Positions 35,586 to 41,695 of a DNA stretch of 64,000 nucleotides are shown one piece after another (position 1 is the first letter of the stretch; each line of letters opens with the position of its first letter). The notes below the pieces were generated by a model. The model was not told where the DNA came from. It did no database searches and saw nothing but the letters and a program-made list of their open reading frames with translations. The position numbers were made by a program, and so were the translations under genes. The stretch is taken from positions 672,001 through 736,000 of the forward strand of contig CAWDTA010000002.1 of assembly GCA_963805085.1 (NCBI GenBank). Reading direction: 5' to 3'. This stretch comes from an uncultured Veillonellaceae bacterium. Its GTDB lineage: Bacteria > Bacillota > Negativicutes > JARBTT01.

Positions 35586-35663
35586 AAAACAATAAAGAGG
35601 AATCCTAATTACTTCTACCAATTAGGATTCCTCTTTATTGTTTTTATTGAAAAATTTTATTTT
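35586..35663. repeat. 25-bp perfect hairpin plus tail; diverged copy of the pucR terminator at 41617-41695
   Basis: AAAGAGGAATCCTAATT..AATTAGGATTCCTCTTT-ATTGTTTTTATTGAAAAATTTTATTTT. Confidence 0.7.
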
Positions 35664-35953
35664 TTTACATACTGCTGCTTTATATGATGAGTATATTATA
35701 AAAAAATATTATGATGATTGCCCTATTTAGTTACTGAAATAATGTAGCTATTTAAGACTTTATTTTTGTGGTAAAAAACAAGTCTGACGTTCCCTTTTTA
35801 ACAGCATGATCGTAATAAAAGAGACTATCAAGGTGGCGAAAAATTAAAAAAATACAATAAAAAACATGATCCTTGTGATAAAAAATCATGTTTTAGCCTA
35901 CTTTTGCTTGCAATCCCCAAGAAATGTAATATAATAAAAAATAAGGTGGAAAT

Positions 35954-36050
35954 AAAAAAAGTCGCCGTGTCCCGAGAGTGTTGACGCACTCTCAGGCACG
36001 AGCAGGTGGTACGAGCACCTACACGTAACAGCTAGCTGTCTACGACGACA
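35954..36050 (-). ncRNA. putative ~95-nt antisense RNA
   Basis: Minus-strand TTGTAA (36083-36078)-17-TATAAT (36060-36055); ends in GC-rich hairpin CGTGCCTGAGAGTG..CACTCTCGGGACACG followed by T7. Confidence 0.65.
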
Positions 36051-36165
36051 ATTTATTATACCGTGCTTTTCCCTTGATTACAAGGGAGATAGTCCGTTCG
36101 CTTGGTATAATACGATTGAAGTTTTGGCAGAGGCTTAGCGTCTGCATGCAATCAAGATGAAGTAT

Positions 36166-36206
36166 AGCGCATGTGTAGGTTGGAAAACCCACGCATGCGC
36201 TTTTTT
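36166..36206 (+). terminator. attenuator terminator in a long structured leader
   Basis: AGCGCATGTGT..ACGCATGCGCT-TTTTT; its 5' arm is complementary to 36017-36026; sense promoter TTGCAA-16-TATAAT at 35908-35935. Confidence 0.7.
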
Positions 36207-36298
36207 AATTTCCCCTGAAACAAACTGTATGTTGGTTTTTTCTATCTGCATCAGCGGATAGAAGAAACCACGTGCAGAATGATGAAGGGGGAAATAAA

Positions 36299-36454
36299 TT
36301 GGTAACAGTACAAGGTAGTAAAAAGCTATGGGCAAGGTATCGCACCAGCGTGTGGCGAGGAAGCCTCCTCGCCACAACCAAGGGGAGAGGTTCGTTCTAT
36401 TTACAAGGGACAAGATATGTTTTTTGGGAAAACAGAGGTTCTATAAATGTATAG
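36299..36454 (+). CDS. possible 51-aa basic small protein
   Basis: TTG start after AAGGGGG (sequestered in a hairpin); stop overlaps the next ATG; contains a perfect 11-bp hairpin, so it may be noncoding. Confidence 0.3.
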   Translation: MVTVQGSKKLWARYRTSVWRGSLLATTKGRGSFYLQGTRYVFWENRGSINV

Positions 36455-36770
36455 AATCTTTAGAACACCAAAAGCCACGATTATTGCTCAGGAAGTAGAG
36501 AACACTGATTTTACAGTTAAATTGCTTACAGATTTAGATTGCAAAGAATATGTGATGATCAAATGGCAAGATACAGTTAATATATATAATTTTTCGCTAG
36601 TTGGTCAGGTCATTGAAATAGCTGACGAAATTTCATTAGAAGAGTTTAGAGAAATTACCTATGCGAAAATATATAAGGAATCATTAGAGCAGGAAATCAA
36701 ACCTAACAGTATGGATTCTCTAAAGTTCGGTTGGAAAAATTTTCTAGAAACAGACACAACTGGCAGCTAA
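36447..36770 (+). CDS. hypothetical acidic protein (107 aa)
   Basis: ATG preceded by AGAGGT; plausible composition; followed by a terminator; no recognisable motif. Confidence 0.6.
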   Translation: MYRIFRTPKATIIAQEVENTDFTVKLLTDLDCKEYVMIKWQDTVNIYNFSLVGQVIEIADEISLEEFREITYAKIYKESLEQEIKPNSMDSLKFGWKNFLETDTTGS

Positions 36771-36792
36771 TACCTGCCAGTTGTGTTTTTTT
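36753..36792 (+). terminator. Rho-independent terminator
   Basis: GACACAACTGGCAG-ctaatac-CTGCCAGTTGTGTT-TTTTT overlapping the stop codon. Confidence 0.8.
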
Positions 36793-36826
36793 ATGGACAA
36801 ATGAGAGACTTCATAAAATTTTGTGC

Positions 36827-36852
36827 AAAACAAGGGACAGGGGTTATGTTTC
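36827..36852. repeat. REP-like end of RAYT-like element 1 (downstream)
   Basis: AAAACA-AGGGACAGGGGTTA-TGTTTC; inverted partner at 37655-37681. Confidence 0.6.
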
Positions 36853-37613
36853 AAGCTTTCCAAATCCATGTTGACGACAGTCTCGTTATTCGCGCTATCT
36901 GGCGTATATTGGCACCATCAACTTCTTTCAGGGCTCTCAATATGTGATCTTGTTTTTCCCTCATTTCATTACAAATTTTTATCGCATCAATGCCGAATTG
37001 ATGTCTGACCATTTGTCGAAGATGGACATCACTCACATTTACTTTAACTTCCGGAATTTCCATACAGACATCGCTGTTCGTTTCCCGTAAAAACTGTACA
37101 AATCGTCCAATCGCTTCATCAGGTTTGTCAGAAAACATGTTTAAGGCATATTCCTTGTCAACGATTTGTGCGCCCTCTATATATTCACTATAACTACTCC
37201 ATTTATAAGCCTCTATATCGCTTGCGATTTTTGCCTTTATCGGGTTCTGGTGAATATAGCGCAGAACTTTCAAAAAATAGCTGTCTGTTTCTATAGCTTC
37301 GCTTTTAAATCTCTCTTAAAATAAATGACCGCATCGTTCATGCTTACGATTATACCATATAACGTAGCTTGAACTAACTCGTTGTATCATCATACTAATA
37401 GACTCTTGGGTTTCTTGTACCAAGATGTGTATATGGTTATCCATTAAACAATAGGCAAAAATTCGACATTGGCTGATTTCTTTGTATTTTGTGAGGTCTT
37501 CGATTAATTTCAGTCGATCTTCATCATCTTCAAAAAATGCTTTGCCGATTGATCCCGCGTAATATAATATGATATATTCCACTGTTACTTTTTTCTCTTG
37601 CTTTTCTTGCCAA
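36851..37613 (-). pseudogene. HUH/Y1 REP-associated tyrosine transposase (RAYT-like, IS200/IS605 superfamily), disrupted
   Basis: TTG GCA AGA AAA..YHIILRGINRQ, YCLMDNHIH (HUH), GHLF*ERFKS, RYIHQNP; +1 frameshift in the T6 run at ~37532-37537 and a TAA at 37316-37318. Confidence 0.88.
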
Positions 37614-37654: not shown

Positions 37655-37681
37655 GAAACAATGTCCCTGTCCCCATGTTTT
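37655..37681. repeat. REP-like end of RAYT-like element 1 (upstream)
   Basis: Reverse complement AAAACA-TGGGGACAGGGACAT-TGTTTC. Confidence 0.6.
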
Positions 37682-38066
37682 ACGCTTAAAAAGCTAAGTT
37701 ATCAATAAAACCGACAACTCAGCAAAAGACGAATCGCAAGGAAGGTTTAAAACTTCCTGAGATTAAACAATGAGCATTTCTTTATACTAGTTAGGATTCG
37801 TCTAAATTACTTTTGGTGAAAAGTTTTATTTTATAACTCAGCTAGTTTGGTTTAATCAAACTGATGCTAGACAAAAAGACCCGGTACATTGTCTTTAGAT
37901 AAGTGTTTTCTGCAATCTATAAGTGAATATATTTCTCTTTATCTAAATCTCTTTTATAATGTAGTTTATTTTTAGACTCATGTCGCTCAATGCTTTATTA
38001 ATCCTATATTAAGGCAATTTTTACATGTTATACATTTTTTTATATTAATTATATTTTTTATGAAAA

Positions 38067-40926: not shown

Positions 40927-40965
40927 TAGATAGGATAGAACGTATGCCAATTAGAGTTTGCGCAA

Positions 40966-41593
40966 TGGGACAAGGGGACAGGTTTGCTGTCCCACTGATA
41001 AAAGAGAATAAAGAATCAATAGACCAAGTGATAAAACGAATTAGTAGTAGCTATGTATATTGGTATAATCAAAAATATCAACGGTGTGGGCATTTGTTTC
41101 AAGAGCGATATAAGAGTGAAGTTGTCGAGACAGATGCATATTTTCTTATGGTTTTGAGATACATTCATCAGAATCCGGTAAAAGCAGGAATTACCAAAAA
41201 TGTAGGTAGATATTTGTGGAGTAGTTATCATAATTATGTCGGTATACCAGGTATTACAGATATAGAGTTTGCGTTAGAAAATTTTTCGAGTGACAAAGCA
41301 GCGGCGACAAAATTATTTATAGAGTATACAAATGAAAACAATGCAGATGAATGTTTGGGTTGTAGAGAAAAAGTGATTGTATCCGATCAGAAAATAATGA
41401 AATATTTAAGTGAAATGGGAATAACAACGATTAGTCAATTGCAACGATTAAATAAAGAGCAACGGGATAATGTAATCCGAAAGATAAAAGAAAAGGATGG
41501 CATTACGATAAGGCAATTAGCAAGGATAACTGGAATTTCTAAAAGTGTAATTGATAGATTGTAGTGGGACAACAAACCTGTCCCTTTGTCCCA
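40966..41593 (+). mobile_element. 5'-truncated RAYT-like transposase bounded by 31-bp inverted REP-like repeats
   Basis: TGGGACAAGGGGACAGGTTTGCTGTCCCACT / AGTGGGACAACAAACCTGTCCCTTTGTCCCA; interior LIKE..YVYWYN..GHLFQERYKS..RYIHQNP but no HUH motif. Confidence 0.85.
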
Positions 41594-41616: not shown

Positions 41617-41695
41617 AAAGACGAATACTAATTGCTTTAAGCCCTACTAGCAATTAGTATTCGTCTTTATTTCTTTTATCGAAAAATTTTATTTT
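41617..41695 (-). terminator. terminator of the aldehyde dehydrogenase-pucR unit (repeat partner of 35586-35663)
   Basis: AAAGACGAATACTAATTGCT..AGCAATTAGTATTCGTCTTT 20-bp hairpin just downstream of the pucR stop. Confidence 0.75.

Follow-up and report, generated by a model that had tools for sequence, protein, structure and literature searches.

A chromosomal, multicopy gene cassette with a predicted antisense-driven transcription attenuator and copy-specific RNA loops

What is a leader of the kind that sets plasmid copy number doing on a bacterial chromosome, ahead of two small open reading frames (ORFs) without a family match? The question is raised by a 64,000-nucleotide stretch of an uncultured Veillonellaceae bacterium (contig CAWDTA010000002.1, positions 672,001 to 736,000; hereafter the window), in which a unit of about 0.9 kb (about 35880-36790) places two convergent promoters at a structured leader and follows it with an ORF of 51 amino acids (uORF51) and one of 107 (ORF107). 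A preliminary description of the locus saw in it the logic of pT181/inc18 plasmid copy control, turned to a candidate establishment, defence or toxin module. The answer we favour, and would put somewhat above an even chance, is that antisense-driven transcription attenuation in the style of pIP501 and pT181 has been reused as a chromosomal, multicopy gene lock whose copies are mutually independent. The lock is probably toxin-antitoxin-like.

The signals from which that description started are all present in the window: a sense promoter (TTGCAA-16-TATAAT, 35908-35935, plus strand), a convergent promoter (TTGTAA-17-TATAAT, 36083-36055) and the hairpin GAGAGTG-TTGACG-CACTCTC (35974-35993). In this AT-rich stretch promoter sites occur at close to chance frequency, six being seen against 5.8 expected from shuffles, and a simple scan for terminators missed both the attenuator and the antisense terminator. 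The single-sequence observation is, as we read it, real yet not significant alone; its significance comes from comparison with relatives.

Far from being a single orphan, the locus belongs to a multicopy family that crosses genera. Its 511-nt leader matches 20 places in its own genome. BLASTN recovers at least 13 near-full copies of the unit there, 84.6-96.6% identical and set in flanks unrelated to one another, with the repeat similarity stopping at about 36790. A covariance model of the antisense RNA (R1) finds 15 copies in this genome. The non-coding leader is more conserved than the ORFs, and positions 36016-36060 are identical in all 13 aligned own-genome copies. Carriers make up 10 of 40 relatives of the same class, mostly with several copies each, and an exact 29-base pattern retrieves 102 stretches from the species collection, whose record titles name Sporomusa (six species), Pelosinus, Propionispira, Propionispora, Anaerospora, Massilibacillus, Desulfosporosinus, a Desulfitobacterium metagenome-assembled genome and unnamed Bacillota. 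For the family analysis 154 loci were reduced to 137 distinct 5' domains, so that counts refer to 135-137 copies depending on the test. By its layout the unit is a self-contained expression cassette: an upstream hairpin, the sense promoter, a leader holding the antisense gene and the attenuator, a long hairpin, a Shine-Dalgarno (SD) sequence with uORF51, ORF107 and a terminator follow one another.

Inside the leader, comparison places a cis-encoded antisense RNA gene that has a promoter and a terminator of its own (35950-36083, minus strand). The predicted transcript of ~100 nt runs from about 36048 to 35950 and ends in GGCGAC followed by U7, much as the preliminary description had supposed from a hairpin and T7; promoter conservation, covariation and strand asymmetry now speak for it. 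It is fully complementary to leader positions 35950-36048 and does not overlap the coding region. The minus-strand TATAAT is kept in 137 of 137 copies, and about 125 of 136 have TTGTnn as the -35; the spacers, 17 nt long in 111 of 136 copies, come in 81 distinct sequences, and the first helix begins 5-7 nt past the -10. Conserved hexamers around a free spacer are the pattern of a working promoter. The minus-strand RNA (36050-35945) folds as a closed four-helix structure with U7 (-45.1 kcal/mol, z -4.3). In this cloverleaf (body 35961-36049, minus strand) P1 (35961-35969 with 36041-36049) closes P4 (36028-36031 with 36036-36039), P3 (36004-36008 with 36016-36020) and P2 (35971-35980 with 35987-35996), and a U-tract is present after P1. 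Over 136 aligned minus-strand RNAs, 97.2% of 3670 helix cells are standard pairs. Changes on both sides are seen for eight pairs, of which P2, with 7 of its 10 pairs covarying, contributes seven. Not one of five measures was reached in 500 shuffles, and sliding the partner strands by 1-3 columns lowers pairing to 29-49%. Despite the cloverleaf, ARAGORN reports neither a tRNA nor a tmRNA.

The fold belongs to the minus strand. Read on the plus strand the same helices pair in 91.3% of cells, worse than on the minus strand; the minus strand has 273 G·U cells and the plus strand 56 (115 against 5 in P2 alone); in 47 of 49 copies the centre of P1 would be C·A in the sense RNA, where the antisense RNA has G·U; and model R1 scores about 120 bits on the minus strand against 27-34 bits on the other. 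Comparison of the copies shows, as far as sequence can, an RNA gene on the minus strand with a defined fold. The sense side is conserved in its own right. Among 129 parsed copies the sense promoter keeps TATAAT in 102 and TTGCAA in 91, with 96 distinct spacers. A helix confined to the sense RNA (UAUUAUAC, 36054-36061, with GUAUAAUA, 36105-36112) appears in both fold and alignment and encloses a hairpin, CCCUUG-AUUA-CAAGGG (36071-36086, plus strand); A-to-G changes in its 3' strand in distant genomes give U·G pairs that exist only in the sense RNA. Taken with the minus-strand evidence, the conserved sense promoter and the sense-specific helix mean that both RNAs appear to be real.

Could the sense leader instead be a ligand- or protein-sensing attenuator, riboswitch-like, with the minus-strand boxes as by-products of its conservation? 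The sense leader, about 265 nt in the proposed transcript, is certainly long, highly conserved and strongly folded (-109 kcal/mol, z -7.6 for the whole leader), it carries the sense-specific helix with its sense-strand G·U pairs, and the antisense model leaves unexplained a box at 36131-36150 (GAGGCUUAGCGUCUGCAUGC, plus strand), conserved in the cross-genus alignment and a small hairpin in the predicted fold. The best-supported helices, however, favour the minus strand, the minus-strand -35 and -10 sit at fixed spacing around a spacer of free sequence, and a sensor needs no pair of copy-specific loops. Searches of Rfam 15 gave no match to the leader on either strand at E<=1. We regard this possibility as very improbable.

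The loops are where the copies differ. Column entropy across the leader domain is near zero except in the P2 loop (35981-35986), the P3 loop (36009-36015), which we term the first and second address loops, and, less so, the P4 loop. Between own-genome copies the pairwise diversity is 0.52 in the P2 loop and 0.53 in the P3 loop, compared with 0.00-0.03 in the neighbouring leader, 0.20 at third positions of ORF107 and 0.62-0.66 in the unrelated flanks. Between the window copy and the copy closest to it (96.6% identity over 874 nt) five of six P2-loop positions differ. Among 135 copies there are 58 distinct P2 loops and 97 distinct P3 loops. Both loops are shared by none of 286 within-genome pairs of copies, a count from which identical copies in other genomes are hidden, as identical 5' domains there were collapsed beforehand; in the own genome, scanned whole and uncollapsed, 14 of 14 copies have distinct loop pairs. 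These hypervariable, copy-specific loops, which comparison shows and the preliminary description had missed, are in our view the strongest indirect support for loop-loop recognition. The mutual complementarity of the P2 and P3 loops equals that of permuted controls, and so does the occurrence of a second loop site, in either orientation, within 640 nt downstream. With no other enriched complementary site, the one partner that each loop is certain to have is its complement in the opposing RNA. A T-box or riboswitch reading of GGUGGUAC was considered and rejected, the stretch being the variable P3 loop.

Recognition would, by analogy with plasmid systems, proceed through kissing loops. According to passages of PMC4485353, loop mutations in plasmid antisense RNAs give rise to new incompatibility groups, and recognition of the pIP501 type runs through two hairpin-loop pairs that must make contact simultaneously and whose loop sequence sets specificity. 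Since the two loops differ from copy to copy, each antisense RNA should gate its own cassette only. Escape from cross-repression after duplication is enough to explain private loops, as a rise in antisense dosage would shut down every copy; private loops might alternatively stem from competition between selfish toxin modules. A constant scaffold with two programmable loops, present many times per genome, would also suit a trans-acting guide whose variable loops address other nucleic acids for an effector (compare bridge and guide RNAs). Yet the cloverleaf RNA has no constantly associated protein, the cargo varies, and no second loop match is enriched in the 640 nt downstream to which the search was confined. 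A guide function is hardly credible on this evidence.

How would an antisense RNA at the far 5' end of the leader act on genes downstream? The leader contains an intrinsic terminator, the attenuator (36166-36206, plus strand; hairpin 36166-36201 and U-run to 36206), as the preliminary description held. Alone it folds at -23.8 kcal/mol (z -5.1), and its 5' arm holds AUGUGUAGGU at 36171-36180. A motif, CGCATGTGTAGG..CCT..CATGCG followed by TTTTTAATTTCC, identifies it in 45 of 49 copies when searched for as a strict pattern; nearly every copy of the larger set has it too, 220-350 nt from the transcript start. The base of the stem covaries (GCGC/GCGC, ACGC/GCGU, CGCUUG/CAAGYG), and the attenuator hairpin, too, is something that comparison of the relatives shows. 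Upstream of it, within the antisense-covered region, ACCTACACGT (36017-36026) can form 10 bp, including one G·U, with ATGTGTAGGT (36171-36180). When the sense RNA is cut at 36184, so that the 3' arm is absent, the minimum free energy (MFE) structure pairs these two segments and melts P3, which is in keeping with the antiterminator proposed earlier; the MFE structure of the complete leader has the terminator instead. Antiterminator and terminator are predicted to be mutually exclusive. The antiterminator, or pre-emptor (ACCUACACGU, 36017-36026, plus strand), is invariant in the family, where its segment is part of the anchor used to collect the copies. The terminator 5' arm, AUGUGUAGG, is invariant while the 3'-arm bases opposite its UGU vary freely, which implies a constraint beyond its own stem. 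The obvious candidate for that constraint is the invariant ACCUACACGU upstream.

We propose that a near-consensus sigma-A promoter starts the structured sense leader, probably near 35942-35944, and that the convergent promoter inside the leader makes the ~100-nt cloverleaf RNA, with P1 closing P4, P3 and P2 ahead of the U-tract. The antisense RNA would meet the nascent leader through the complementary P2 and P3 loops and then pair with it over 35950-36048. This duplex would cover the antiterminator and block its pairing with the terminator 5' arm; the terminator would form, and transcription would stop at about 36206, ahead of the uORF51/ORF107 cargo. With too little cognate antisense RNA the antiterminator would form first and the cargo would be transcribed. 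The pT181/inc18 logic put forward at the outset holds up in part: the antisense gene and the terminator have comparative support, the upstream pairing segment is predicted by folding and fits the pattern of conservation, and termination would depend on the antisense RNA.

Several observations weigh against this proposal. (i) The pairing of the antiterminator with the terminator 5' arm has no support from covariation, both segments being invariant, and where U36026 is replaced by C, in three copies, a compensating G is found in only one. (ii) The terminator wins at equilibrium in the absence of antisense RNA, so that the model relies on co-transcriptional kinetics. (iii) Some conserved parts of the leader are not needed by the model: the box at 36131-36150, the pairing of the leader 5' end with the attenuator tail, and the long hairpin that follows the attenuator. 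(iv) The YUNR U-turn that had been read in the recognition loop is present in the window copy (UUGA), but only 54 of 137 sense P2 loops in the family have it. (v) ORF107 ends early in 5 of 13 own-genome copies, at 95, 91, 74 and 48 amino acids (two at 95-91), and its divergence shows little codon-position bias (0.21/0.15/0.20), which together indicate that it is weakly constrained or partly decaying. (vi) A lock that worked by attenuation alone could not give classic post-segregational killing, which would leave the selection for private loops unexplained.

An alternative keeps the antisense RNA and moves its action beyond transcription. In a type I-like arrangement the duplex would lead to cleavage by RNase III or J, or would alter the stability or processing of the leader, and the leader terminator would be a constitutive partial stop or answer to another factor. 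The comparative evidence for the antisense RNA applies here equally; the terminator is the equilibrium structure with or without antisense RNA, the antiterminator pairing does not covary, and SymE of E. coli is reportedly controlled post-transcriptionally by SymR. Such a mechanism sits poorly with an antisense RNA whose overlap is confined to the extreme 5' end of the leader, with 250 nt and a terminator separating it from the first SD; with an antisense-covered region that holds exactly the segment able to pair with the terminator 5' arm; and with a 5' arm kept beyond the need of its own stem. We consider it unlikely.

Two of the conserved parts that antisense-driven attenuation does not need are themselves supported by compensatory changes. 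The first ~15 nt of the leader (AGGTGGAAATAAAAAAA, 35944-35960, plus strand) are complementary to the attenuator U-run and tail (36196-36212) and pair with the tail in the MFE structure of the full leader; compensatory changes between the two ends occur in L036-39/L075, L042/L046, L045, L044 and L134, and RNAalifold retains the helix. Possible roles are an end-to-end pairing of the read-through or the terminated RNA; a shared terminator ancestry of the two ends is a further possibility. The long hairpin after the attenuator (CUGUAUGUUGGUUUUUUCUAUCU..GGAUAGAAGAAACCACGUGCAG, 36225-36277, plus strand) has, in an alignment of 20 ORF107-type copies, a variable loop and compensatory changes in its stem.

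What the lock would guard differs from copy to copy. Cargo was classed by regular expression and ORF listing, with a Pfam scan on part of the ORFs; at 21 loci the downstream DNA is too short to assign a class. The uORF and ORF107 arrangement of the window is found in 21 of 137 copies. A cargo protein of ~100 amino acids with the motif Y-x-Q-G-F-x-D is found in 38 copies and matches DUF6809 weakly (E 2e-3, below the cut-off), while one cassette carries a genuine DUF6809 protein (116.7 bits). SymE_toxin proteins are the cargo of 14 copies (43.5 and 33.8 bits, cut-off 29), and often a conserved partner of 55-90 amino acids comes next. Sporomusa copies carry a helical protein of 61-70 amino acids and Desulfosporosinus copies one of 55 amino acids; a few copies precede ordinary regulators. 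The ORF listings of the examined loci, searched by regular expression and by eye and with Pfam on some, show no replication gene, which agrees, as does the lack of a plasmid match, with the earlier statement that the locus has no replicon. We infer a toxin-like or regulatory role for the cargo. The suggestion of a toxin module finds company in relatives with SymE-type cargo and none in the ORFs of the window, which have no family match.

In the window, uORF51 (36299-36454, plus strand; TTG start, SD AGGGGG at 36286-36291) contains a conserved hairpin, GUGGCGAGGA-AGCC-UCCUCGCCAC (36352-36375, plus strand). It is open in 12 of 13 own-genome copies; in Pelosinus it is open but in a shifted frame for part of its length. 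We take it for a coupled upstream ORF, overlying conserved RNA hairpins, rather than for a conserved protein. The start of ORF107 (36447-36770, plus strand) overlaps its stop (AUGUAUAG), and 8 of 13 own-genome copies of ORF107 are full length (105-110 amino acids). Neither ORF has a Pfam, PHROG, PADLOC or NCBIfam match. For ORF107 a word-based search finds 12 relatives, all close hypothetical proteins, and an exhaustive profile search only 7 representative clusters among 1.84 billion proteins. An AF2 model with five strands and a helix (pLDDT 67.5, pTM 0.39) was compared with known folds, as had been suggested, and gave no significant match (Foldseek against PDB, best E 0.29; VIA-align wide, best Z 4.5); the ESM Atlas gave no usable match.

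A few observations concern the cargo more loosely. At L014, L049 and L114 the SymE partner (..GRLVTSPDGSEWI..L....L.YYQ.R..CYGFIPD) belongs to no Pfam family, and its gene overlaps the end of the SymE-like ORF. At G000:C2:798856-799347 the uORF is fused in frame with ORF107 into a protein of 163 amino acids, and at C5:21385-54320 decayed C-terminal fragments of ORF107 are clustered, none with a leader. In three related genomes (L114:1082-1314, L014:897-1136 and L057:1723-1960) the cassette is preceded, at a distance of ~115 nt and on its own strand, by a BsrG-like type I toxin gene (peptide MTVYEALTFAVAFATLMVLVINQKK; Rfam BsrG at 43.8, 42.5 and 27.2 bits, below the gathering threshold of 55), with the cassette antisense RNA directed at the 3' end of the toxin gene. 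By peptide motif such a neighbour is found in only 3 of 81 loci. Apart from these sub-threshold BsrG hits upstream of three cassettes, Rfam 15 at E<=0.1 gave only unrelated matches on 18 related loci.

How does the cassette travel? The window copy sits on a contig of 2.1 Mb, and distant-mode searches of 72,556 plasmids and of a phage collection found no match to the cassette. Model R1, under strict filters, had no match in an even sample of 150 other genomes of the same phylum. The distribution recovered by these searches is patchy and crosses from the Sporomusaceae (Negativicutes) to the Desulfitobacteriia (Desulfosporosinus and Desulfitobacterium), which, with the empty 150-genome sample, is suggestive of horizontal transfer among distant spore-forming anaerobes. 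In the sister genome G001 the contigs break at the repeat, and a search for an empty site found no contiguous one.

This dispersal invites the reading that the hairpins and the inverted repeat (35944-35960/36196-36212) are DNA signals of a small mobile element, for instance one mobilised by a nearby IS200-like or RayT-like Y1 transposase, and that the RNA features are incidental. The 15 dispersed copies have unrelated flanks, and the two end segments covary as terminal inverted repeats would. The genome holds 24 Y1_Tnp matches, and Y1_Tnp genes lie within about 0.5 kb of three own-genome cassettes (examples are C2:553861, C2:248640 and C2:709244) and about 2 kb from a fourth. On the other side, the one-strand excess of G·U pairs is a signature of RNA and not of DNA, two promoters are kept as hexamers with free spacers, and cargo is swapped behind a constant leader, which makes the conserved unit regulatory. 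Of 154 loci only 7 have a RayT-like gene within 1.5 kb, though among the own-genome loci retrieved the figure is 3 of 8. The cassette also does not behave as a non-autonomous IS200/IS605 derivative (PATE- or REP-like): its link with Y1 is inconsistent, and it has its own promoters, RNA gene and ORFs. As an explanation of the conserved features, mobile DNA signals seem to us quite improbable; mobility could nevertheless hold in addition to attenuation.

Antisense-driven attenuation, the preferred reading, belongs to a known class of mechanism; what would be new is that it sits on a chromosome in many copies with exchangeable cargo, uses a cloverleaf antisense RNA and has loops particular to each copy. 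By analogy with RNAIII/RNAII of pIP501, pAMbeta1 and RNAI of pT181, a cis-antisense RNA would be made inside the leader, and as in inc18 and pT181 the leader terminator is predicted to be pre-empted by an upstream complementary segment that lies under the antisense RNA. Unlike those plasmid systems, the cassette is chromosomal, carries small-protein cargo that includes toxin-type proteins, had no rep gene in the loci examined, and matches neither the 72,556 plasmids nor the Rfam countertranscribed RNA families; its antisense RNA is a closed four-helix cloverleaf, and 15 co-resident copies have private loops.

The SymR/SymE pair (RF01809; PF08845) offers a second comparison, as the leader drives SymE_toxin proteins in relatives and the antisense RNA overlaps the 5' part of the mRNA. 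SymR covers the symE ribosome-binding site and start codon and so blocks translation, whereas the cassette antisense RNA lies 250-400 nt upstream with a terminator between. At the window locus itself neither ORF matches SymE_toxin (PF08845) and there is no match to RF01809. The Ibs/Sib and Ldr/Rdl pairs of E. coli resemble the cassette in that several paralogous sense/antisense pairs share a genome, with variable recognition segments that reportedly keep the pairs private. They act, however, on the translation or stability of tiny hydrophobic toxins through full overlap; in the cassette the leader is separate and contains a terminator, recognition would use two short loops borne by an invariant scaffold, and the cargo is not membrane-type.

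Premature termination of a sense RNA is promoted by a cis-antisense RNA in Anti-Q/prgQ of pCF10. The same is described for RnaG/icsA of Shigella (PMC2879508). Both are single loci on virulence or conjugative plasmids, not multicopy and without hypervariable loops. In engineered orthogonal pT181 attenuators, pairs were made independent by changes in the recognition loop, and large non-interfering sets are portrayed as hard to build in the same work (PMC3753616). Those sets are man-made and few; the cassette family appears to present at least 58 P2-loop and 97 P3-loop variants on one scaffold. A literature search found no description of the element, and the family is apparently undescribed.

A wider reading is possible but doubtful, with a chance we place well short of even. 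On this reading the Sporomusaceae and some Desulfitobacteriia would hold a natural library of portable RNA locks, with an invariant scaffold and two loops of 6-7 nt as a combinatorial address. A dozen or more cassettes in one cell would be gated independently, each with a different small toxin or regulator (SymE, DUF6809, ORF107 and others), and the loops would be under diversifying selection against cross-repression. This would be the first chromosomal toxin-type system under antisense-driven termination, and a source of ready-made orthogonal parts for RNA circuits. To our knowledge antisense-driven attenuation, a textbook mechanism, is known almost only from Gram-positive plasmid copy control and a few single loci. 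If the proposal is correct, it has been recruited as a general, modular chromosomal lock before toxin-type and other small proteins, and adds a mode of control to type I-like toxin-antitoxin biology. More than 130 variants with an identical scaffold, differing essentially in two loops, would constitute a natural experiment on the evolution of RNA-RNA specificity, and the family might supply synthetic biology with dozens of non-interfering antisense attenuators. It would also put an abundant, hitherto unrecognised RNA gene on the annotation of acetogens (Sporomusa), Pelosinus and Desulfosporosinus, organisms used in bioremediation and electrosynthesis research.

The edges of the cassette are marked by further hairpins. 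On the left an A/T-rich hairpin, ACATGAT..ATCATGT, read from the sequence, stands between an A-run and a T-run (35864-35894); 8 of 13 aligned own-genome copies have this version, and a G+C-rich hairpin with a T-run replaces it in the other five. It may act as an insulator or back-stop terminator. On the right a bidirectional hairpin with a T-run (about 36752-36795, plus strand) would serve as the cassette terminator. A 34-amino-acid ORF across the attenuator (36157-36261) is spurious, its frame being lost in other genomes.

Some features lie near cassettes without touching the matters above. Rfam matches unrelated to the cassette, each within 1.5 kb of one, are found at L054:1936-2085, L061:973-1069 and L078:768-830; the types at these loci are a group II intron domain, two CRISPR repeats and a fluoride riboswitch. 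Between a VIT-family gene and the window cassette stands a perfect 20-bp A/T-rich hairpin resembling a bidirectional terminator (35592-35638), and the minus strand of 35596-35670 has a sub-threshold Rfam match to the Enterococcus sRNA RefA9 (34.4 bits, gathering threshold 49, E 0.0098). A 52-nt stretch at ~41644-41695 is related to this hairpin region. Two relics of IS200-like (Y1_Tnp) transposases with a C-terminal helix-turn-helix follow downstream, one interrupted by a stop between 37273 and 37316 (36851-37582, minus strand) and one without its N-terminus (40944-41564, plus strand). Upstream of the broken transposase gene is a ~160-bp repeat (37679-37837) that is 93% identical to G000:C2:550930-551088 and 90% identical to C4:12862-12948, and the latter lies ~100 bp from another copy of the cassette.

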